Shown here piece by piece: positions 13,006 to 62,876 of a stretch of 64,000 nt of DNA (its first letter is position 1; every line of letters begins with the position of its first letter). The translations under genes were made by a program, and so were the position numbers. This DNA is from SAR202 cluster bacterium (GTDB lineage Bacteria > Chloroflexota > Dehalococcoidia > Lucifugimonadales > Australimonadaceae). The stretch is from positions 5,210 to 69,209 of the forward strand of contig VGZX01000005.1 in the NCBI GenBank assembly GCA_016872415.1. The letters are read 5' to 3'. Below the pieces are notes generated by a model that saw only the letters and a list, made by a program, of their open reading frames with translations, was not told where the DNA came from and ran no database searches.

Positions 13006-13374
13006 ATGCCAGATATCGCCGACGAACGGTGCGCCCCGGTCCGGGCGGGGTCGCCCCGCGTCACGGAAGCCGATCTGCCGGCCCTGCTCGCCCGGGTGCC
13101 GGGTTGGGAGGTCGTGGTCGACGACGGCATCCGCGCCCTCCGCAAGCGATTCAAGTTCCACGAGTTCGACGACGGGCTCGCCTTCGTAACCGCGGTCGCC
13201 AAGGAGGCTGACGTGGAGGACCACCATCCGAAAGTCGTGCTGGAGTTCCAGTCGGTGACCGTGTATTGGACGGCGCACGCCATAGCCGATCTCCACCGCA
13301 ACGATTTCATCATGGCGGCCCACACGGACCGCCTCTACGGCGGACCGCCATCCGGCTCGCTGCGACCGCGCTGA
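13006..13374 (+). CDS. pterin-4a-carbinolamine dehydratase (PCD/DCoH family), copy 1
   Basis: 122 aa with FKFHEFDDGLAFVTAVAKEADVEDHHPKVVLEFQSVTVYWTAH..LHRNDFIMAA, the PCD fold signature including the HHP motif. Confidence 0.85.
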   Translation: MPDIADERCAPVRAGSPRVTEADLPALLARVPGWEVVVDDGIRALRKRFKFHEFDDGLAFVTAVAKEADVEDHHPKVVLEFQSVTVYWTAHAIADLHRNDFIMAAHTDRLYGGPPSGSLRPR

Positions 13375-13390
13375 ACGACAAGGAGGCACC

Positions 13391-13753
13391 GTGCCCGATC
13401 TGACGAAGGAGCGATGTATCGCTTGCACTCCCGCCTCGCCGCACGTCACCGAGGGGGAAATGCTCTCGCTGCGCCCCAGCGTGCCCGAGTGGCGCGTGGT
13501 CACCGAAGGCTCGGCGAAGGCGCTGTGGCGTTCGTTCCGCTTCCGTGGATTCTCGGACGCGCTCGCCTTCGCCAACGAGGTGGGCCGCATCGCCGAGGAA
13601 CAGGGCCACCACCCGGTGATGACGATCGAGCTACGCAAGGTCACCGTCGTCTGGACCACGCAAGCGATACACAACCTGCACCGCAACGATTTCATCATGG
13701 CCGCGAAGACCGACCAACTCCATGCCGGCCGGTCGTCCGGCGCGGCGCGCTGA
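13391..13753 (+). CDS. pterin-4a-carbinolamine dehydratase (PCD/DCoH family), copy 2
   Basis: GTG start at 13391 preceded by AGGAGG. FRFRGFSDALAFANEVGRIAEEQGHHPVMTIELRKVTVVWTTQ..LHRNDFIMAA. It is a diverged tandem paralog of the previous gene. Confidence 0.85.
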   Translation: MPDLTKERCIACTPASPHVTEGEMLSLRPSVPEWRVVTEGSAKALWRSFRFRGFSDALAFANEVGRIAEEQGHHPVMTIELRKVTVVWTTQAIHNLHRNDFIMAAKTDQLHAGRSSGAAR

Positions 13754-15241: not shown

Positions 15242-17365
<2,124 letters not shown>

Positions 17366-34929: not shown

Positions 34930-35004
34930 TGGTGGACGCTAGGGGATTTGAACCCCTGACCCCCTGCTTGCAAAGCAGGTGCTCTCCCGCTGAGCTAAGC
35001 GCCC
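34930..35004 (-). tRNA. tRNA-Ala (anticodon TGC)
   Basis: Sense GGGCGCT TA GCTC AGCGGGA GAGC A CCTGC TTTGCAA GCAGG GGGTC AGGGG TTCAAAT CCCCT AGCGTCC A CCA. It has the G3:U70 identity pair and an encoded CCA. A TATAAT -10 lies at 35020-35025 on the same strand. Confidence 0.95.
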
Positions 35005-40843: not shown

Positions 40844-42459
40844 CCGCCGGACCGTTGCTTCCCCGCCGCTTCGCGCGGCACATCCCCCAATGTCACGGCG
40901 ACACCGGCGCCCGGCTGCACGACCACGACCGTCACCGCCGGCGCATCGGCTCCGGTCATGGATGCGCCGCCCTTCGCGACCGAGTCGCCGACACCGGCAT
41001 CGTCCAGCCGGGCCCCGCCGCGCGTCTCGGTCAGCACCTGCACCACGCGCACCTTGCCCGTGGCCGTCTCGCGGATGATGCGGACTCGCACGCCCAGGCT
41101 CACGTCGGCCAAGCCCGCTTCCTTCTCGCCGAACGTCAATCGAGGCCCACCACGCTCGATCAGCACGCGGACCCCATGGCCGTTGGTGAGCTGCACCTTC
41201 AACAAGATGCCGCCGCCGCTTTCGGAGCGGACGAGGGTGACGCCCGTGATCCGCCCTTCGACGGCCTGCATGACCTCCGGCGGCTGTTCGCGCTTCGGCG
41301 CCGGCGTGGGAGTCGACGGCGATGCCGTCCGCGCGGCCGGCGTCGGCATTGCTTCCGGCGCCCGGCTGGGAGTCGGCGTCGGCGCGGAAGTCTCGTTCGT
41401 GGTGAACGGCGGTGACGTCTGCTGATTGGGCAACGGCAGCACGGGCTTAGTGCTGGGGCGCGCGGCGGGCTGCGCCGTCGGCGCCTCTTCCGCTCCCACG
41501 TTCGTCAAATCGCTCGACGCCGTCGCCGGCGTGGGCGTGGGCACCACCACCGTGATGGTGATGGGGGTCCGATGCAGCGAGTCGGCCTTGCGTAGCACGG
41601 CAAGCAGCTGCTCCCGGCGCTCGCGCAACGACGCCGTCAGCCGTTCCAACGCGGCGCGCGCGCAGGCGTCCCGCGTGATGGCCTCCAACTGGGCGATCTT
41701 GGTTTCCAGCGCCACCATCTGTTGATTGAGCTCCAACAAGCGGTCGGCTGGTATCTCGGCCGTCGCTGGCCGCGAGGCCGTCACCGCGCCCGGCGTGTGG
41801 GCTGGGGGCGCCTCCGTCGCATTGCCCAGCGCCACCATGCTTGGCAGATCGGCGACGGCGTGATCGACCGGCGCCACGACCAACCTGTCGGCCCGGTCCG
41901 CGTGGTGCTCGATGCGTTCGGCGAGACCGGGCACGAACCGTGTCCGCTCCTCCTCCGTGACCACCTGCAACTCGTGCACGCGGCGGTCGAGGAGTTTTGC
42001 ATGGAGGCCGGCTTCCCGCGAATCGGTGAAGGCCAGCGGCAACTGCGCCTGCTCGGCGGCGCGCTTCACCGGATAGAGGGCATCGCCCGGCACGCTGCTC
42101 GTGGATGCCACCACGGTGCCGGCGCCGCCCAGCAGCACCGCCGCGACCACGGCGGCGGCGGTCGCCAAGCGGCGTCCGCCCCACAGCACGTCGCGCAGCA
42201 GGCCGACGGGCGATGCCTTGGCGGCGGCGATCTGCCGGCGCTCGATGGCATCGTGCAGCCGCAGCCGCGCCGCGCGCTTCGCGTCCGCCGACGGCGTGAA
42301 CGAGGCGGCCTTGCGCACCGCCATGGCCGTGCTCAACGCCTGGCGCAGGTCTTGGGCATGCTCGGGATACTCGGCGACGACCGTGTCGATCGACTCGCCG
42401 CGCATCGTCACGCGGTCGAGGCACTCGTCCAGTATGTCCGCGAATGAACGCTCCGTCAT
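40840..42459 (-). CDS. anti-sigma factor-like membrane protein (single TM, Pro/Thr-rich linker, C-terminal beta domain)
   Basis: Overlaps the sigma gene stop. Cytoplasmic N-terminus, TM LATAAAVVAAVLLGGAG, and DALYPVKRAAEQAQL as in DUF5667-type anti-sigma proteins. Confidence 0.7.
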   Translation of the reverse strand: MTERSFADILDECLDRVTMRGESIDTVVAEYPEHAQDLRQALSTAMAVRKAASFTPSADAKRAARLRLHDAIERRQIAAAKASPVGLLRDVLWGGRRLATAAAVVAAVLLGGAGTVVASTSSVPGDALYPVKRAAEQAQLPLAFTDSREAGLHAKLLDRRVHELQVVTEEERTRFVPGLAERIEHHADRADRLVVAPVDHAVADLPSMVALGNATEAPPAHTPGAVTASRPATAEIPADRLLELNQQMVALETKIAQLEAITRDACARAALERLTASLRERREQLLAVLRKADSLHRTPITITVVVPTPTPATASSDLTNVGAEEAPTAQPAARPSTKPVLPLPNQQTSPPFTTNETSAPTPTPSRAPEAMPTPAARTASPSTPTPAPKREQPPEVMQAVEGRITGVTLVRSESGGGILLKVQLTNGHGVRVLIERGGPRLTFGEKEAGLADVSLGVRVRIIRETATGKVRVVQVLTETRGGARLDDAGVGDSVAKGGASMTGADAPAVTVVVVQPGAGVAVTLGDVPREAAGKQRSGG

Positions 42460-43028
42460 GCTTGGGTTCCTTCCTCCCCAACGCCGAAGCGCACCTTTTC
42501 GAGATCGTCCCCCAGCCTGCCGCGCAACGCCTTCAGCACCGTCCGCTGCAACTCGCGTATCGCGCCTTTCGTGCGCCCCATCACCGAGCCGGCCTCCTCG
42601 GACGACAGCCCCGCGATGAACCGCAGCGTGATCACCTGCTGCTGCGCCGGGTTCAGCTGCGCCATCGCCTGCAGCACCCGGTCCATGATGAGCTTCTGCT
42701 CGACCTCCCCCTGCGGCTCATGGTCGGAGGGCAGCTCCAGCGCCTCGTCCAACGGCACATTACGACGGCGGCTGCTCCGCCGGTAATGGTCGATCACGAT
42801 GTTGTGGGCAACGCGGAACAGCCACGCCTGCAACGGCACCCCGCGCTGCTCGAACGAACCGATGGATTCCGCGCAACGAACGAACACGTCGCCGGCAAGG
42901 TCTTCTGCGAGGTCACGGTTGCCGATGCGCGCCGCGATGTAGCGGGTTACGCGGTCGTAGTACTGCTCGTAGAGGTCTGCCAATGCGGCGGCGTTCGACT
43001 CGGCGCTGTTCCGGCCTCGCAGGGCCAA
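42456..43028 (-). CDS. ECF-type RNA polymerase sigma-70 family factor
   Basis: Region 2 LADLYEQYYDRVTRYIAARIG..AEDLAGDVFVR..WLFRVAHNIVIDHYR. Region 4 LNPAQQQVITLRFIAGLSSEEAGSVMGRTKGAIRELQ. Confidence 0.9.
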   Translation of the reverse strand: MALRGRNSAESNAAALADLYEQYYDRVTRYIAARIGNRDLAEDLAGDVFVRCAESIGSFEQRGVPLQAWLFRVAHNIVIDHYRRSSRRRNVPLDEALELPSDHEPQGEVEQKLIMDRVLQAMAQLNPAQQQVITLRFIAGLSSEEAGSVMGRTKGAIRELQRTVLKALRGRLGDDLEKVRFGVGEEGTQA

Positions 43029-48096: not shown

Positions 48097-49191
48097 ATGG
48101 CAGAGTCCTACGGGTTGGGCCAGACGGTCGAAGGGCTGGCGAATGTGAAGGTCATCGGTGTCGGCGGCGGCGGATGCAACGCGGTGAACCGCATGCTCCG
48201 CGAGCGCATTCCGGGCGTGGAATACCTGGCGGTGAACACGGATGCCCAGCACCTGATGCGGCTGGACGTGCCCCTGAAGATTCGCATTGGCGACAAGCTC
48301 ACCCGTGGCTTGGGCGTCGGCGGCAACCCCGAGATCGGCCGCGCCGCCGCCGAGGAGTCCCGCGAGGAGCTCTATGAAGCCGTGCGCGGCGCCGACATGG
48401 TCTTCGTCGCCGCCGGCATGGGCGGCGGCACCGGCACCGGCGCGGCCCCCATCGTCGCCGAGATCGCCAAGGAAACCGGTGCGCTCACCATCGGCGTCGT
48501 CACCCGCCCCTTCAGCTTCGAGGGGCGCCGCCGCGCGAAGAACGCCGACGACGGCCTCGCTCACCTCAAGGAGCATGTCGACACCCTGCTCGTGATCCCC
48601 AACGACCGCCTGACGCACATGTGCGACGAAAAGGTGACCACCGAAAGCGCCTTCAAGATCGCCGACGACGTGCTGCGCCTGGGCGTGCAGGCCATCGCCG
48701 AGCTCGTCACCTCCGCCGGCGAAATCAACGTCGACTTCGCGGACGTGAAGACCATCATGAGCAACGCCGGCCCCGCCTGGATGTCCATCGGCAACGGCCG
48801 CGGCGAGCACCGCGCCGTCGACGCCGTCAAGGCGGCCATCAACAGTCCCATGCTCGACGTCAGCATCGAGGGCGCCCGCGGCGTCCTGTTCAACATCACC
48901 GGTGGCACTGACCTGACCCTCCGCGAAGTGCAGGCCGCGGCCGATGTCATCAGCCGCGTCGTCGATGCCGAGGCCAACATCATCTTCGGCATGACCACCG
49001 ACCTGAAGATGGACGACGAGATCCGCCTCACCATCATCGCCACCGGCCTGCCCGCCGCCGTGCCGCAGGCCACCCTCCGCGACGACAGCATCTCCGAGTT
49101 CCTGCGGCAGACGCTCGGCACCGAAAGCCAGTTGGACCTGCCTCCGTTCCTGCGGCCGAACAGCGGCAACAAGAACCCGTTCCGTCGCTAG
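48097..49191 (+). CDS. ftsZ: cell division GTPase FtsZ
   Basis: [44 protein letters not shown] and NVDFADV. Confidence 0.97.
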
Positions 49192-49206: not shown

Positions 49207-49236
49207 GGGGTCCCACGGCGGCCGCCGTGGGACCCC
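49207..49236 (+). terminator. perfect 30-nt GC-rich palindrome right after ftsZ
   Basis: GGGGTCCCACGGCGGCCGCCGTGGGACCCC, 16 nt after the ftsZ stop. No U-tract. Confidence 0.5.
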
Positions 49237-49283
49237 CTAGAAACGACAACAAGGTCCGGACCCCCCCTCTCCCCGGACCTTCC

Positions 49284-49400
49284 CCGGAATAGTCCTTCCC
49301 CAGGCTGTTCCAGTTCTCTCTTCCGACCGCTCCTGTGCGCCATGGGAAGCGGTCAAGACCCGGGCCCTGCAGCACCCACTGCGGGGCCACTCTTTTTAAC
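49284..49400 (+). repeat. pyrimidine-rich intergenic element, copy A, ending in an intrinsic terminator (candidate sRNA or 3'UTR element)
   Basis: Homologous to 53106-53222. CU-rich blocks (tccttcccc, ttccagttctctcttccg), then an 8-bp stem 49363-49370/49381-49388, then ACTCTTTTTAACCC. An upstream hairpin at 49253-49279 has the loop ACCCCCCCTCTCC. Confidence 0.6.
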
Positions 49401-49530
49401 CCTCGTTAACCATCGCGAGCGGCTCCCGCCCGCTAGCCGCTGCGCTTGCCACCGGTTCTGCATTCCTACTACTGGTTGTGCTAATCCCCGCGCATATCTC
49501 CTAGAGTTGCGAAAATTCGCTCGCCCACCC

Positions 49531-49559
49531 TTGACTTTGCTCGCCCGGCTTCCGAGAAT
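49531..49559 (+). promoter_or_regulatory. sigma70-like promoter for nrdR-nrdJ (TTGACT-17 nt-GAGAAT)
   Basis: TTGACT at 49531-49536, a 17-nt spacer, and GAGAAT at 49554-49559. Confidence 0.5.
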
Positions 49560-49607
49560 GGCGCTCGTAATCAGCGGCCACCGTCCCTAGTAGCCGCCGC
49601 ACCTTAA

Positions 49608-49623
49608 AATACTATATATTGGC
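49608..49623 (+). promoter_or_regulatory. NrdR-box-like palindrome
   Basis: aatACTATATATTggc compared with the consensus acaCwAtATaTwGtgt, about 85 nt upstream of the nrdR ATG. Only one box was seen. Confidence 0.45.
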
Positions 49624-49706
49624 GCCACCACTACCGAGTTCACCGGATCCCCGTGTGGCCGTCCTCCACGGCCACGCGGGGTCCGGTTGAGAAACCCCGG
49701 AGGCGC

Positions 49707-50300
49707 ATGCGCTGTCCGAACTGTGGAGACCCCGACTCTCGCGTTACCGACTCGCGCGACACCGGCGATGAGATCCGCAGGCGCCGCGAGTGCGCGCAGT
49801 GTGGCGTGCGCTTCACCACCTACGAGCGCGTCCAGCGCGCCGCCCTCATGGTGGTCAAGCGCGACGGCCGCCGCGAGGAGTTCAACCGCGAGAAGCTCAT
49901 CCGCAGCATCCGGCTCGCGTGCGTCAAGCGCCCGCTGCCCACCGGCGTCATTGAAAAAGTGGTCGATGAGATCGAGAGTGACCTGCAGCGCCTCGGACGC
50001 GCGGAGGTGCCTGCCACCGTCATCGGCGAGGCCACGCTCGACAAGCTGCGCGAGATCGACACCGTCGCCTACATCCGCTATGCCAGCGTCTACCGCGATT
50101 TCGACGACGCCAGCGGTTTCATTCGCGAGATCCAGGCGCTCCAAGAAGAGGAGCAGGCGGAGGCCATGCGCGCCTTCGCGAGCCAGCTGCCGCTGATCCC
50201 CAACGAATTCCAGATCCCACCGAAACCGCGCGCGCGCCGTGGCCGCCGTCCCAGCATGACTCCTCCGGTCCGCGAGAACGGCGCCGTCGAGGTGAGTTAG
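49707..50300 (+). CDS. nrdR: transcriptional repressor NrdR (zinc ribbon plus ATP-cone)
   Basis: MRCPNCGDPDSRVTDSRDTGDEIRRRRECAQCGVRFTTYERV, followed by an ATP-cone. GGAGG RBS. Confidence 0.95.
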   Translation: MRCPNCGDPDSRVTDSRDTGDEIRRRRECAQCGVRFTTYERVQRAALMVVKRDGRREEFNREKLIRSIRLACVKRPLPTGVIEKVVDEIESDLQRLGRAEVPATVIGEATLDKLREIDTVAYIRYASVYRDFDDASGFIREIQALQEEEQAEAMRAFASQLPLIPNEFQIPPKPRARRGRRPSMTPPVRENGAVEVS

Positions 50301-50311
50301 GCAAGGCCGCT

Positions 50312-52567
50312 ATGCCCACCATGCCTCGCCTGTCGGACAACGCGCTCACCATTCTGAAGACGCGCTACCTGCGCCACGGCGAAACGCCGGCCGACCTCTT
50401 CCGCCGCGTCGCCAGCGCCGTCGCGGCCGCCGAGGAGCGCGACCGAGAACAGTGGGCGGAGCGATTCTACGAGCTGATGGCCCAAGGCCTGTTCCTCCCC
50501 AACTCGCCGACGCTGTTCAACGCCGGCACCGGCGCGGGAACCCTCTCGGCCTGCTTCGTCATACCGATCGAGGACACTATGGAGTCGATCATGGCCGCCG
50601 CCACTACCAGCGCCATGATCCAGAAATACGGCGGAGGCGTCGGCTACTCGTTCGGCAGGCTGCGGAGCAAGGGCACCCGCATCGCGAGCACGCATGGCAA
50701 GGCATGCGGCGCCGTGGCCGTGCTCAAAATGCTCAGCGGGCTCTCCGAGATGATCACGCAGGGCGGCAAGCGCGGCGGCGCGAACATGGGCATCTTGCCC
50801 GTGTCGCACCCCGAGGTCCTCGAGTTCATCCACCTGAAGGACGACTTCGTCACCGCGCAGAACTTCAACGTCTCCGTCGCCGTCACCGACCGGTTCATGG
50901 ACGCCGTCGAGCGCGACACCGAGTGGCAGCTCGTCGATCCGCACACCCACCAGGTGGCGGACCGCCTGCCCGCCCGATCGCTCTGGCAAGCCATCGTCGA
51001 CAGCGCGTGGCGCACGGGCGACCCCGGCCTCTACTTCATCGACGAGGCTAACCGGCACAACCCAACGCCGCATCTCGGCATGCTGGAAAGCACCAACCCC
51101 TGTGGCGAGGTGCCCCTGCTGCCCTACGAAGCCTGCAACCTCGGCTCCATCGACCTCGCCCGGTTCGCGCGGCTCGGCGCTCCTACCGCCGCCGCCTTCG
51201 ATTTCGACGCCCTCGACGATGTGGTCCGCGTCGCCATCCGCTTCTTGGACGACGTGGTGAACATCAACGAATTCCCGACGCCGGAAGTGCGCGAGGCCGT
51301 CGGCAAGACTCGCAAGATCGGCCTCGGAGTCATGGGCTGGCACGACGCGCTCATCCGCCTCGGCATACCCTACGCCGACGCCAAGGCCCGCGAGCTGGCC
51401 GAGCGCGTGATGTCGCGCATCGACGCTGTCGGCGATGAAACCTCGCGGGCCCTGGCCCGCGAGCGCGGCCCCTACCCCGCGTCCGTCGGCGACCCGATGC
51501 GGAACGCGACCCGCACCTGCATCGCGCCCACCGGCAGCATCAGCGCCATCGCCGGCGCCTCCAGCGGCATCGAGCCGGTGTTCGCCCTCGCCTACGTCAA
51601 GAACGTGCTCGACGGCAAACGTCTCCGCGAGGTGAACCCCTATCTGGAGGCGGTCGCGAAGGAACGCGGGTTCTGGTCCCAAAGCCTGATGGACGAGGTC
51701 GTCCGCACCGGCAGCGTCCAGGGAATCGACACCGTTCCCGCCGACGTGAAGCGCCTGTTCGCCACCGCCATGGAGATCCCCTACGCCGCGCACGTCGCGA
51801 TGCAGGCGGTCTTCCAGCGCCACACCGGCCTCGCCGTCTCCAAGACGATCAATATGACCCACGCGGCCACCCCCCACGATGTCGAGGATGCCTACTGGCT
51901 GGCATATCGCTCCAAGTGCAAGGGCATCACCGTCTACCGCGACGCCAGCAAGCCCGCCCAGGTGCTCGAGGTTCCAGGCAGCCAGCCGGCGACGACCACC
52001 GCCGAGCGCGCCGCGCGCGTCAAGCGTGAGCGTCCCCGCAGCATCCGCGGCGTGACCGACCGCGTGCGGACCTCGCAGGGCAACGCCTACATCACCGTCA
52101 ACTTCGACGAGTCGGGCGAGCCGTTCGAGGTGTTCACTACGATCAGCAAGGCAGGCGGCAACGACCAGGCGAACCTGGAGGCCGTCTCGCGCCTCGTGTC
52201 ATTGGCCCTCCGCTCCGGCGTTCCGGCGGTCGAGATCGTTGAGCAGCTGCGCGGCATCACCAGCGAACCCGTGTGGGACAGCGGCCGCCTCATCATGTCC
52301 GCCCCCGACGCGGTCGCGCAGGTGCTGGCGGCGCACTCGCTCGGTGCAGCGACCGCTACCGGACACGCCACCGGCACCGCTTTCGCCGCGCAGCCACGCC
52401 TGCCCATGGATGGCTCGCTCGATGAGCCTCCCGACGGCGCCGCGCCAATCTTCGCCGACCCGGTGCTGCTGGCGCGGCAGCAACGCTGCCCGGACTGCGG
52501 CGGCCCCCTGGTGCTGCAAGAGGGTTGTATCGCATGCTCCTCCTGCGGCTTGAACAAGTGCGGCTGA
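50312..52567 (+). CDS. nrdJ: adenosylcobalamin-dependent (class II) ribonucleotide reductase
   Basis: FLPNSPTLFNAG, LSACFV, GGGVGYSFGRLR, TNPCGEVPL and a C-terminal zinc motif CPDCGGPLVLQEGCIACSSCG. Confidence 0.92.
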   Translation: MPTMPRLSDNALTILKTRYLRHGETPADLFRRVASAVAAAEERDREQWAERFYELMAQGLFLPNSPTLFNAGTGAGTLSACFVIPIEDTMESIMAAATTSAMIQKYGGGVGYSFGRLRSKGTRIASTHGKACGAVAVLKMLSGLSEMITQGGKRGGANMGILPVSHPEVLEFIHLKDDFVTAQNFNVSVAVTDRFMDAVERDTEWQLVDPHTHQVADRLPARSLWQAIVDSAWRTGDPGLYFIDEANRHNPTPHLGMLESTNPCGEVPLLPYEACNLGSIDLARFARLGAPTAAAFDFDALDDVVRVAIRFLDDVVNINEFPTPEVREAVGKTRKIGLGVMGWHDALIRLGIPYADAKARELAERVMSRIDAVGDETSRALARERGPYPASVGDPMRNATRTCIAPTGSISAIAGASSGIEPVFALAYVKNVLDGKRLREVNPYLEAVAKERGFWSQSLMDEVVRTGSVQGIDTVPADVKRLFATAMEIPYAAHVAMQAVFQRHTGLAVSKTINMTHAATPHDVEDAYWLAYRSKCKGITVYRDASKPAQVLEVPGSQPATTTAERAARVKRERPRSIRGVTDRVRTSQGNAYITVNFDESGEPFEVFTTISKAGGNDQANLEAVSRLVSLALRSGVPAVEIVEQLRGITSEPVWDSGRLIMSAPDAVAQVLAAHSLGAATATGHATGTAFAAQPRLPMDGSLDEPPDGAAPIFADPVLLARQQRCPDCGGPLVLQEGCIACSSCGLNKCG

Positions 52568-52668
52568 CCGCCTGAAACCACGCCCGCGGCCCAGCCCAAT
52601 CGCCCGGCCGGCTCCACTCGGCCGAGCGGCCATGCCATCGCGGCATGCACCCACGCAAGGAGGCACTC

Positions 52669-53094
52669 ATGGAAGCGTCAGCGTTCCGTTGGCTGTTGGA
52701 TGTCGACCTGCCCCATGTGGCCTCCGACGACCTTGACGCCCTGCACGTTCAGGACTTCGACCGGCTGCCGGGACACGCGGGGCTGACGGAGGCGAAATCG
52801 CTGGGACGGACGCTCGTCACCGCCAACCTCGACTTCGCTGGCGCCTGGCAAATACCGGGCAACCATCCCGGCGTCGTGATGTTCGAGGCCCCACCGCACG
52901 ATCGCGAATCCCTGGAACGGAACCTGCACCACGTCCAGTTCCGCCTCCGCCAATACGGCCGAAGCCTCACGCTGGCGGGCAACCGTTTCCTCGTCAAGAC
53001 CGACTGCACCATGGAGCAATTGCTGCCGGATGGCCGGCAGGTGCGGTTGGAACCGTGGCGAACCGTCCGGGCCCCCGTCCTCGCGGCAACGTAA
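52669..53094 (+). CDS. DUF5615-like (PIN-like) domain protein with an extra C-terminal region, no adjacent DUF433 partner
   Basis: GGAGG RBS. MEASAFRWLLDVDLPHVASDDL..GRTLVTANLDFAG..HPGVVMF follows the DUF5615 pattern (fLlDenLP..vlTkDkDF..GvI). Confidence 0.55.
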   Translation: MEASAFRWLLDVDLPHVASDDLDALHVQDFDRLPGHAGLTEAKSLGRTLVTANLDFAGAWQIPGNHPGVVMFEAPPHDRESLERNLHHVQFRLRQYGRSLTLAGNRFLVKTDCTMEQLLPDGRQVRLEPWRTVRAPVLAAT

Positions 53095-53105
53095 CCACGC
53101 CAATT

Positions 53106-53222
53106 CCGGGGCGTTCCTCCCCAGAACGTCCCACTTCCCTCCTCCGCAGGCCCCCCCGACGCGCCACGGGAGTGGGCCAACCGGGCCCCGCTGGTTTCCC
53201 CACCACGGGGCCCACCCTTTTT
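53106..53222 (+). repeat. pyrimidine-rich intergenic element, copy B, ending in an intrinsic terminator
   Basis: Blocks ttcctcccc and tcccacttccctcctccg, gcgccacgggagtgggccaa, stem GGGCCCCG 53173-53180 / CGGGGCCC 53196-53203, then ACCCTTTTTAACCC. It abuts the stop codon of the convergent MFS gene. Confidence 0.6.
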
Positions 53223-54537
53223 AACCCACCGGCGACACGGCCGCCGCCGGCCGCCGTTTCACCGGGGTTGGGACCAGGTAAACCATCGCCATCGAAAGGG
53301 CGGTCAGCGCGATGAACAGCAGAAACACGTTGCGGTAGCTGCCGAAGAAATCGAAGAAGAACCCGGCCAGCACGGTGCCGCTGCCCTGGGCCACCGCTTG
53401 AAACGGCACCGCGATGCCAAGAATCGTCCCCGCCGACGCTCGCCCAAAGTAGCTGGCGTAAATCGTCCGCTGCACCATGCCGAAGCCGCCATAGCCAATG
53501 CCCATCGCGATGCCCAGCGGAATCACCATCCACGCGCTATAGGCGAACATCGCCAACACCGTGAACAGCAGCACCACCGACGCCGCGCCAACGAGCACCA
53601 GGCGAGCCTGATACCGGTCCAGCAGCCAGCCCCATATCGGGCTCGACGGAATCATGGTCACGCCGGCGACGCTGAACGTGAGCGCCGCGACCGTGGCGCC
53701 CACGCCCCGGTCCGTTAGGAGCGGCACCAAGTGGACCGCGAGCCCCAAATTGCCGAGCGCGATGGTGCAGAGCCCCATCACCAGCACCCAAAAGGTGCGC
53801 GTTCGCACCGCCTCGCGCGCCGTCCATTGCACCTCCGTCGCCGCGGTGCGCTCGCCCGGCCGCGCCCGCGGCGGTGGCGCGCCATCGCGCTCGCCATCGA
53901 TCGCCTGGCCCACGTCGCCCGGCGCGCGCCGCAAGAACAGCACCGCCGCCGGCACCGCCATCACGAATGTCGCGATGCCGAGCGCCCGCCATCCCATGCG
54001 CCAGCCCGCCTGGTCCAGCACGAGCGCGCCCACGGCCGGCATCGCCACGAACCCCAGCCCCAGCAGCAGGTTGACGATGCCCATTGCCCGCCCGCGCTTG
54101 CGGACGAACCACTGGGCGATCACCGCGTTGATGCTGACCCGGGCGATGCCCGCGTTCACCGCGAAGGCGAAGCCCGCCAGCGCGTAGAACGCCGGCAGCG
54201 AGTTCACGGACCCCACCAGCGCCAAGCAGAACGCGACCAAAGTGCCACCGATGCTCAACACCGGCCGCGCGCCGTAACGGTCGATCAGCCGCCCCGCCAG
54301 CGGCGCCGCCGGAATCACCATGAACGTCCCGAACAGCACCGCGGCCGACAGCTCCGTCCTCGTCCAGCCGAATTCGTTCGCCATCGGCGTGAAGAAAATG
54401 CCCACCATCACCGGGCTCTCCGCCACGCCTGCGAACGAGATGAGGCCGGTGACCGTCGCGATCACCCACCCATAGTAGAAGGGCAGCCGCCTCGCGGCCG
54501 GTCGTGCGAGTGACAGCATCCGCCGGCTCCTCACCAC
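53221..54537 (-). CDS. MFS transporter (12 TM, oxalate/formate antiporter-like architecture)
   Basis: 438 aa, hydrophobic throughout. FYYGWVIATV N-terminus like the 32093 MFS, and a GRLIDRYGARP motif. Confidence 0.85.
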   Translation of the reverse strand: MVRSRRMLSLARPAARRLPFYYGWVIATVTGLISFAGVAESPVMVGIFFTPMANEFGWTRTELSAAVLFGTFMVIPAAPLAGRLIDRYGARPVLSIGGTLVAFCLALVGSVNSLPAFYALAGFAFAVNAGIARVSINAVIAQWFVRKRGRAMGIVNLLLGLGFVAMPAVGALVLDQAGWRMGWRALGIATFVMAVPAAVLFLRRAPGDVGQAIDGERDGAPPPRARPGERTAATEVQWTAREAVRTRTFWVLVMGLCTIALGNLGLAVHLVPLLTDRGVGATVAALTFSVAGVTMIPSSPIWGWLLDRYQARLVLVGAASVVLLFTVLAMFAYSAWMVIPLGIAMGIGYGGFGMVQRTIYASYFGRASAGTILGIAVPFQAVAQGSGTVLAGFFFDFFGSYRNVFLLFIALTALSMAMVYLVPTPVKRRPAAAVSPVG

Positions 54538-62799: not shown

Positions 62800-62876
62800 G
62801 GTGGGCGTAGCGTAGCGGTTAACGCGCCAGGTTGTGGCCCTGGAGATCGAGGGTTCAAATCCCTTCGCTCACCCCA
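62800..62876 (+). tRNA. tRNA-His (anticodon GTG) with encoded G-1 and CCA
   Basis: G GTGGGCG TA GCGT AGCGGTTA ACGC G CCAGG TTGTGGC CCTGG AGATC GAGGG TTCAAAT CCCTT CGCTCAC C CCA. Confidence 0.95.

Follow-up and report, generated by a model that had tools for sequence, protein, structure and literature searches.

What occupies the space between ftsZ and nrdR in a SAR202 cluster bacterium, and why does a similar sequence recur after the last gene of the nrdR operon? We addressed this question in a 64,000-nt stretch of contig VGZX01000005.1 (hereafter, the window). A sequence-only reading had drawn attention to a segment downstream of ftsZ that holds no credible open reading frame (ORF) and ends like an intrinsic terminator, and had proposed that it was either a small regulatory RNA (sRNA) directed against Shine-Dalgarno (SD) sequences or a mobile terminator cassette. 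We found that this segment (copy A) and its counterpart behind the nrdR operon (copy B) represent one structured RNA module, of which they are ancient paralogues; it is read on the + strand and is about 125-135 nt long. Both copies belong to a covarying, strand-specific RNA family whose two paralogues flank the nrdR operon in one clade of SAR202, an observation whose significance exceeds what the earlier reading could see.

The homology of the two copies was established first within the window. Searched with blastn, copy A returned copy B as its sole significant match (69% identity over 113 nt, E=6e-5), and nhmmer with B as the query recovered A at E=1.8e-6. A covariance model (CM), R1, built from the family sequences, matched both copies over their full length, and its scan of the 64-kb window gave zero + strand matches beyond A and B, i.e., no third copy. 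The stretch at 53106-53222, earlier called homologous to the post-ftsZ segment, is thus a true paralogue lying 3.8 kb away on the same strand. The identity counts quoted for two blocks (14/18 and 15/20) were correct on recounting; the ending ascribed to both copies, a GC stem followed by AC(T/C)CTTTTTAACCC, is present in the sequence, as is the extra hairpin at 49253-49279 with a C-rich, 13-nt loop (ACCCCCCCTCTCC). The model match of A starts at 49279 and its first hairpin at 49286, placing the start of the unit slightly upstream of the 49284 proposed before. The description of the body as unusually pyrimidine-rich was moderately supported, with A at the 86th and B at the 93rd percentile of 79-nt windows; the excess of C over G in copy B reached the 98.5th percentile.

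Base-pair changes across the family argue that the module acts as RNA. R1 was used to realign 36 elements, giving an alignment that is fitted to the model and in which the inner pairs of the first hairpin (H1) are under-represented because stem lengths differ. In it, 89% of pair cells held standard pairs, against 38-60% when the partners were slid by 1-3 columns. Both sides had changed in 16 of the 30 pairs, and none of 500 shuffles reached the observed covariation, so that the test for compensatory stem changes suggested with the earlier reading came out positive. The strand was equally clear. G-U and U-G cells numbered 83 and A-C and C-A cells 33, the folding z-scores were -5.15 on the + and -1.59 on the - strand for A, and -4.31 and -2.66, respectively, for B, and a T-tract follows the hairpin on the + strand only. 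Together with the compensatory nature of the H1 changes and the lack of a shared ATG, these data identify a + strand RNA and not a peptide gene. A small ORF at 49342-49590 (82 aa), whose ATG lies in the loop of the second hairpin (H2) of copy A, was rejected, as neither B nor the orthologues have this ATG. The reverse complement does carry GGAGGAGGGA and then GTG, resembling an SD sequence and a start codon, and could be taken for a - strand feature, either an antisense RNA or a small ORF after GGAGGAG. Set against the G-U excess, the weak - strand folding, the side of the T-tract and an H1 variation that is not codon-like, this explanation is highly improbable.

Independent minimum free energy (MFE) folds of 34 distinct sequences gave a common architecture, comprising H1, an unpaired linker, H2, and a third hairpin (H3) followed by a U-tract. 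The H1 loop is of the CUCCCC type, with the C-rich motif in 30 of 36 loops, and is carried on stems that are wholly different among lineages (GGAACGC/GCGUUCC, GGAAGUGCGC/GCGCUCUUCC, GGGACAG/CUGUCCC, GGAGCGGUC/GACUACUCC and others). The linker presents an unpaired, near-invariant CUCCUCC, of which CUCCUC is at least 97% invariant across the family. H2 has 11 bp and a one-base bulge, and six of these 11 pairs show double-sided changes; CGCCA stands in its loop in all 36 elements, usually as GCGCCA, and this unpaired GCGCCA is likewise at least 97% invariant. In the long, GC-rich H3, the outer 8 bp (GGGCCCCG/CGGGGCC) are sequence-invariant, appearing across the family as GGGCCC.G/GGGGCC, while the inner stem and loop vary. 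The tails contain 4-7 U among their first 10 nt. The CUCCCC and CUCCUCC motifs, which include the CCUCC/UCCCC-type strings noticed earlier, are exposed in unpaired positions. The 3' ends have the sequence features of intrinsic terminators: in copy A, 10 pairs (8 GC) followed by CUCUUUUU, and in copy B, an 8-bp GGGCCCCG/CGGGGCCC outer stem plus an inner stem, followed by CCCUUUUU. The CM, the folds and the orthologues therefore bear out the proposal that the element is conserved, structured and non-coding and carries a 3' end of its own that resembles an intrinsic terminator.

We then asked where else the module occurs. In the window, the local order is ftsA, ftsZ, copy A, nrdR promoter, nrdR, nrdJ, orf149, copy B, a convergent MFS transporter gene and pdxA. 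Where relatives encode an FtsZ 73-82% identical to the window protein, the ftsZ loci retrieved contained both copies at the equivalent places, one behind ftsZ and the other behind the final gene of the nrdR operon; the lowest FtsZ identity to the window among element-bearing genomes is about 73%. A more distant locus (FtsZ 67%, ftsZ then secD; L008) held no element by CM. Species-representative genomes were scanned with the pattern CTCCTCC...GCGCCA...GGGCCCYG, giving at least 119 stretches, and metagenomes with the same pattern minus the C-rich motif, giving at least 120. About a quarter of the genome matches listed were true elements, all in Dehalococcoidia or Chloroflexota metagenome-assembled genomes (MAGs). 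The other 75% or so were chance matches from other GC-rich phyla, without support from a hidden Markov model or CM, and two Chloroflexota pattern matches (L050 and L061) were rejected as coding-sequence coincidences. Among the metagenome matches listed, six true loci held nine elements, and 114 of the 120 stretches were unrelated GC-rich terminators (e.g., L155).

The number of true elements is at least 45 (36 in genomes and 9 in metagenome contigs), from at least 30 relatives. The copy count that had been proposed as a check on the element thus revealed two fixed slots around nrdR. According to tblastn with the window proteins, all 45 among the matches listed lie in the arrangement ftsZ-[A]-nrdR-(nrdJ)-(orf149)-[B]-pdxA. 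No element in another context was found among these matches from SAR202/Dehalococcoidia genomes and metagenome contigs, which strongly suggests that copies are absent outside the ftsZ-nrdR-pdxA locus. The gene directly 5' of B varies (nrdR, nrdJ or orf149), and B itself is kept. On average, B copies were 74% identical to one another and A copies 60%, and the mean identity of A to B copies was 57.5%. The lower identity of A to B than of B copies across species indicates that the duplication is old and predates the divergence of these genomes, and the mean identities mark B as the copy under stronger constraint. In one clade (L036, L070, L110 and L031), A is reduced to C-rich-loop hairpins and the GGGCCCCCG terminator.

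These results bear on the question of mobility. Two similar copies close together on one strand could represent a dispersed terminator cassette, like a repetitive extragenic palindrome (REP) or a miniature inverted-repeat transposable element (MITE), or could reflect chance similarity of low-complexity, GC-rich sequence. The mobile cassette is refuted by the confinement of all recognisable copies among the matches listed to two syntenic slots, with other pattern matches lacking model support, and also disagrees with the want of a third copy in the window and with the age of the duplication. The worry that low-complexity composition accounts for the likeness of A and B is met by significant alignment scores and by covariation. 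Dispersal and chance are, taken together, a very remote prospect.

The element also differs from catalogued RNAs. A gathering-threshold scan of the whole window against Rfam 15 matched two tRNAs only and left the element unmatched, and permissive scans of A and B gave chance-level matches, the best being BjrC80 (17.5 bits vs a threshold of 80). The earlier statement that this is not a known family therefore stands after the cmscan check that had been suggested for it. Literature searches for sRNAs of SAR202, Chloroflexi or Dehalococcoidia found nothing relevant.

Is the module a gene of its own or the end of a longer transcript? A sigma70 scan, which passed its nrdR positive control, identified exactly the nrdR promoter (TTGAC[T/A]-17/18-[G/A]AGAAT) in the window and in L002, L007 and L036, and no sigma70-like promoter upstream of A or B on the + strand in these four genomes. 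No conserved -10/-35 block was visible upstream of the elements. A custom promoter pattern was discarded because it failed its positive control, finding one of six known nrdR promoters. The model match of B begins 7 nt after the orf149 stop, and the distance from the stop of the upstream ORF is 6-15 nt overall; between the stop codon and H1, relatives have a brief A/C-rich segment as well as a small hairpin (H0). As no promoter of their own was found while the nrdR promoter was detected each time, the elements are most simply explained as 3' untranslated region (3'UTR) ends of upstream mRNAs. Judged from these sequence features, A and B are most likely 3'UTR/terminator ends and not free-standing genes, with copy A most likely being the 3'UTR of the ftsZ mRNA. 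The free-standing sRNA gene of the earlier reading is not indicated. Two independent sRNA genes with non-canonical promoters would suit the sRNA-like architecture (three hairpins, unpaired conserved motifs and a terminator), and in copy A the one or two hairpins between the ftsZ stop and H1 might terminate ftsZ. Measured against the promoter scans and the closeness of B to the orf149 stop, this arrangement is distinctly unlikely.

The downstream side is equally informative. The nrdR promoter lies about 135 nt 3' of the A terminator, so A is not in the nrdR leader. In many genomes, a pdxA -10 box (TATAAT or TATACT) is located about 12-60 nt 3' of B. With the nrdR and pdxA promoters placed just after the elements, the module also separates adjacent co-oriented units. 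In many relatives (L036 5650-5700, L108, L042, L002 12955-12976 and others), only about 12 nt separate the pdxA -10 box from the B U-tract, so that the -35 position of this promoter falls on the terminator's invariant 3' arm. The pdxA ATG of L002 and L109 follows the -10 box by only about 9 nt, suggesting a leaderless pdxA mRNA.

A further possibility is that the modules are conditional terminators (attenuators) that control whether transcription of ftsZ runs on into nrdR, and that of the nrdR operon into pdxA-proC-yggT. A factor on the C-rich linker or H2 would then turn H3 off, e.g., through a GGGCC/GGCCC hairpin in which the H2 3' arm pairs with the H3 5' arm. Both copies do lie between co-oriented units of the extended division cluster, their U-tracts are often weak, and an alternative 5-bp hairpin (GGGCCAUCGGGCCC) can form in B copies. 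That hairpin, however, falls well short of H2 plus H3 in strength and lacks conservation in A copies, where the H2 3' arms read GGAUC or GCGGUC, and the antiterminator pairing was rejected on both grounds; no conserved competing antiterminator was found. The position of a riboswitch or attenuator leader is not seen either, as the nrdR promoter and the pdxA -10 box both lie 3' of the U-tracts and give the downstream genes promoters of their own. In the window, moreover, the convergent MFS gene follows B, leaving nothing downstream to read into. Attenuation is thus unlikely.

What, then, might two such modules do? In the mechanism we prefer, copy A would end the ftsZ transcript and copy B the nrdR-operon transcript, with H3 and the U-tract stopping transcription before the next promoter (that of nrdR after A, and that of pdxA after B in most relatives). 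The H1 loop would display CUCCCC, the linker CUCCUCC and the H2 loop GCGCCA, and the C-rich unpaired motifs would pair with G-rich, SD-type sequences. A stable 3'UTR-derived sRNA could be freed if the A/C-rich stretch that lies upstream of the hairpins is processed; alternatively, the module could act in cis on its own mRNA. Cell division (ftsZ) and the supply of deoxynucleoside triphosphates (nrdR) would in this way be linked to how target mRNAs are translated or how stable they are, much as with 6C and RoxS/RsaE, C-rich RNAs that need no chaperone. We assign a probability of about one half to the proposal that the modules end these two mRNAs and that their C-rich unpaired motifs base-pair with SD-type sequences in trans or in cis.

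This proposal draws on the pattern of conservation. The best-conserved bases are unpaired while the stems drift by compensation, which argues for sequence-specific contacts, and folds and conservation agree on a conserved unpaired seed of the kind expected of a base-pairing regulator. The C-rich motifs are perfectly complementary to SD sequences of the GGAGG type, which are seen at nrdR and elsewhere. In the clade with a degenerate A, C-rich loops and the terminator are the parts that survive. By analogy with known C-rich RNAs, we favour base-pairing as the role of the module, which would probably act in the form of a 3'UTR-derived RNA, and the anti-SD idea of the earlier reading is plausible.

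Several results weigh on the other side. Within the window, the extended linker complement (CTGCGGAGGAGGGAGA, GGAGGAGGGA) occurs only in the element itself and in chance-level matches, and RNAduplex searches with five seed segments against the whole window returned ordinary SD regions and nothing outstanding. When the translation-initiation regions of all called genes were ranked in five syntenic loci, no consistent partner emerged. CCUCC-type strings pair with almost any SD sequence, so that complementarity discriminates little. Anti-SD pairing also leaves the invariant GCGCCA loop and the outer GGGCCCCG stem of H3 unexplained, and these invariant parts hint at a protein or other partner. Promoters without a -35 box, such as that of pdxA, would escape the sigma70 scan, and U-tracts are imperfect in many orthologues (4-7 U per 10 nt), making the efficiency of termination uncertain.

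Individual candidates fared as follows. An icaR-like cis model was rejected because the ftsZ SD region never ranked high in any of the five loci, and yggT, which appeared promising as a target in L002, failed in L005, L006 and L007. The best SD-type match in the window is a gene start at 42458-42481 on the - strand, whose SD region (UUGGGGAGGAAGGA) is a perfect 11-nt complement of the B-H1 loop (UUCCUCCCCAA); it is indistinguishable from generic SD complementarity.

The unexplained GCGCCA loop and GGGCCCCG stem keep a protein-binding or purely cis model alive. Here H3 would terminate transcription and insulate the next promoter, H0, H1 and H2 would shield the upstream mRNA against 3' exonucleases or be bound by a dedicated protein (e.g., a termination factor or an RNase), the invariant loop and stem would be protein recognition sites, and there would be no base-pairing role. 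The location at operon 3' ends immediately before the nrdR and pdxA promoters fits such a module, as does the failure to find a target in the window or in the five syntenic loci, and it would account for the sequence invariance of the H2 loop and of the outer stem of H3. Stems alone would suffice for a terminator or stabiliser, however, and here the unpaired CUCCUCC and the H1 loop are among the best-conserved parts while the stems covary; furthermore, two paralogues serving different operons retain the same motifs. We regard the purely cis-acting 3'-end module as a serious, if doubtful, alternative.

Comparison with characterised RNAs helps to place the base-pairing proposal. RoxS/RsaE (RF01820) of Firmicutes acts on SD regions. 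Like the present element, it combines several unpaired C-rich regions in loops and linker with an intrinsic terminator; unlike it, RoxS/RsaE is a free-standing gene transcribed from its own regulated promoter. The scans upstream of A and B turned up no promoter, and the two copies have no Rfam match and come from another phylum. Enterobacterial 3'UTR-derived sRNAs (CpxQ, SroC, DapZ and MicL types) share a terminator with the upstream mRNA, carry their seed in the 3'UTR, and are released by processing or made from an internal promoter. Our element appears similar in its predicted 3'UTR position, shared terminator and seed. Those sRNAs, in contrast, are Hfq-dependent and sit in A/U-rich contexts, and release by processing is only a candidate step here.

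The 6C sRNA (RF01066; B11 in mycobacteria) needs no chaperone to bind its targets, which it does via C-rich loops, and a link to cell division has been described (PMC6486639). It is likewise a small structured RNA of a high-GC Terrabacteria lineage, the Actinobacteria; C runs in its hairpin loops pair with G-rich mRNA sites without Hfq or ProQ, and it is tied to cell division and DNA replication phenotypes (PMC6486639). Neither A nor B gave a 6C match even at E<=10. 6C needs two stem-loops with at least six Cs each, whereas H1 here has CUCCCC (four Cs) and H2 has GCGCCA, and a seven-C run occurs only in the lineage-specific H0 of copy A. The main conserved motif here is in the linker and not in a loop, there is an additional GCGCCA hairpin, and the element lies in the 3'UTR as two syntenic paralogues. 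In Staphylococcus aureus, a UCCCC motif in the long icaR 3'UTR pairs, again with no chaperone involved, with the SD sequence of the same mRNA (PMC3868564). The present element, likewise in a 3'UTR, has a similar motif for which SD pairing is possible. The partner of icaR is its own SD sequence, whereas the ftsZ SD region was not preferred in the five genomes tested, and icaR is not a multi-hairpin module conserved across genera.

The module is thus a new RNA family that may resemble 6C, RoxS/RsaE and the icaR 3'UTR in function and is a member of none of them, given the lack of homology, the differing loops and architecture and the absence of a recognisable promoter of its own. A more elaborate version of the proposal is offered tentatively: a processed pair of riboregulators, fixed at the 3' ends of ftsZ and the nrdR operon, might use CUCCUCC/CUCCCC seeds and a partner-bound GCGCCA loop to couple division and deoxynucleotide supply to a regulon with G-rich SD sequences. 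It would be an independently arisen Chloroflexota counterpart of 6C/RoxS and the first regulatory RNA described in the clade.

Few bacterial groups of the dark ocean are as abundant as SAR202, which has no cultured model. The literature searched contained nothing on RNA-level regulation in SAR202. The family described here is well supported, can be scanned for with a CM, stands next to two functions at the core of the cell cycle (that of FtsZ, and that of NrdR together with ribonucleotide reductase) and can be searched for directly in existing marine metatranscriptomes. If the base-pairing proposal is true, it would be the third case in Terrabacteria of C-rich regulators that work without a chaperone, and one that evolved independently, and its sequence-invariant loop and stem suggest a further partner. 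Even as a terminator/stabiliser module only, it would still improve the annotation of operon boundaries in these genomes.

Table 1. Coordinates of the RNA modules, their parts and neighbouring features (window numbering unless a relative is named).
Feature	Position	Strand	Description
Copy A, conserved RNA element	49279..49408	+	full covariance-model match; R1 61.4 bits, E 2e-12
A-H0 hairpin	49253..49279	+	7-9 bp stem, 13-nt C-rich loop ACCCCCCCUCUCC
A-H1	49286..49311	+	9-bp hairpin, loop CUUCCCCA, first C-rich motif; MFE folds
A-linker	49312..49324	+	unpaired, AGUUCUCUCUUCC, degenerate form of CUCCUCC
A-H2	49325..49354	+	loop with invariant GCGCCA at 49337-49342
A-H3	49363..49388	+	10 pairs, 8 GC; U-tract 49391-49397, tail ACTCTTTTTA; terminator scan
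Copy B, conserved RNA element	53101..53232	+	full covariance-model match; R1 95.1 bits, E 3e-20
B-H1	53108..53132	+	9-bp hairpin, loop CUCCCCA
B-linker	53133..53148	+	unpaired, ACUUCCCUCCUCCGCA; CUCCUCC at 53139-53145
B-H2	53149..53178	+	GGCCCCCCCG...GGGAGUGGGCC, one-base bulge; loop GCGCCA at 53161-53166
B-H3	53183..53213	+	GGGCCCCG at 53183-53190 pairs with CGGGGCCC at 53206-53213; U-tract 53218-53222
ftsZ coding sequence	48097..49191	+	stop TAG 49189-49191
Post-ftsZ palindromic hairpin	49207..49236	+	perfect 30 nt, 13-bp stem, without U-tract; first hairpin of ftsZ 3'UTR
Post-ftsZ hairpin in relatives	L002 11095-11130; L005 11098-11130; L006 11118-11142; L007 11100-11132		first hairpin 3' of the ftsZ stop
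nrdR promoter	49531..49559	+	TTGACT-17-GAGAAT; sigma70 scan
nrdR operon	49707..53094	+	nrdR (ATG 49707-50300), nrdJ 50312-52567, orf149 52645-53094
MFS transporter gene	53221-54537	-	convergent; stop overlaps B U-tract (TTTTTAA, 53218-53224)
tRNA gene	34933-35004	-	Rfam gathering-threshold match
tRNA gene	62801-62873	+	Rfam gathering-threshold match

The genes around the modules were identified as follows. The window FtsZ is 100% identical to the FtsZ annotated in a SAR202 cluster bacterium MAG (P0001), and the next FtsZ proteins, about 82% identical, are from Dehalococcoidia or Chloroflexota MAGs. The nrdR product has the Pfam Zn_ribbon_NrdR and ATP-cone domains, its start site being read from the sequence, and the nrdJ product has the Pfam ribonucleotide reductase barrel domain and TSCPD. 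The product of orf149 gave a weak DUF5615 (PIN-like) match of 21.9 bits, below the cutoff of 23.8, and no other; orf149 is a conserved hypothetical gene after nrdR or nrdJ in many relatives (44-48% identity) and is absent from the clade in which B directly follows nrdR. The insertion of the MFS gene between B and pdxA was seen in this genome only, pdxA being directly 3' of B in relatives.

Additional structure was noticed on both sides of copy A. The segment 49200-49285 has a folding z-score of -4.66, and C-rich-loop hairpins equivalent to A-H0 are also found in relatives. In relatives, the first hairpin 3' of the ftsZ stop has a conserved (A/U)GCCUCC(C/U) loop, usually of the GCCUCCC type, which is another CCUCC motif; the palindrome of the window has a GGCC loop in its place. 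Between the nrdR promoter and nrdR, conserved CT(A/G)GTAGCC and AAAATACTATATATTG sequences at about 49585-49622 resemble a pair of NrdR boxes, as in autoregulation. A leader hairpin at 49642-49687 lies just 5' of the SD sequence GGAGG and the nrdR ATG (49707), and similar hairpins are found in relatives. It gave a sub-threshold Rfam match to 'F6 TB sRNA' on both strands (30.4 bits vs a threshold of 46). Elsewhere in the window, two pairs of direct repeats of about 110 nt with 72% identity were found at 13254-13749 and 15790-16723, with spacings of 385 and 826 nt. They correspond to repeat families D5 and D6 (D15 and D19 overlap the second pair) and are probably internal repeats or tandem paralogous genes.

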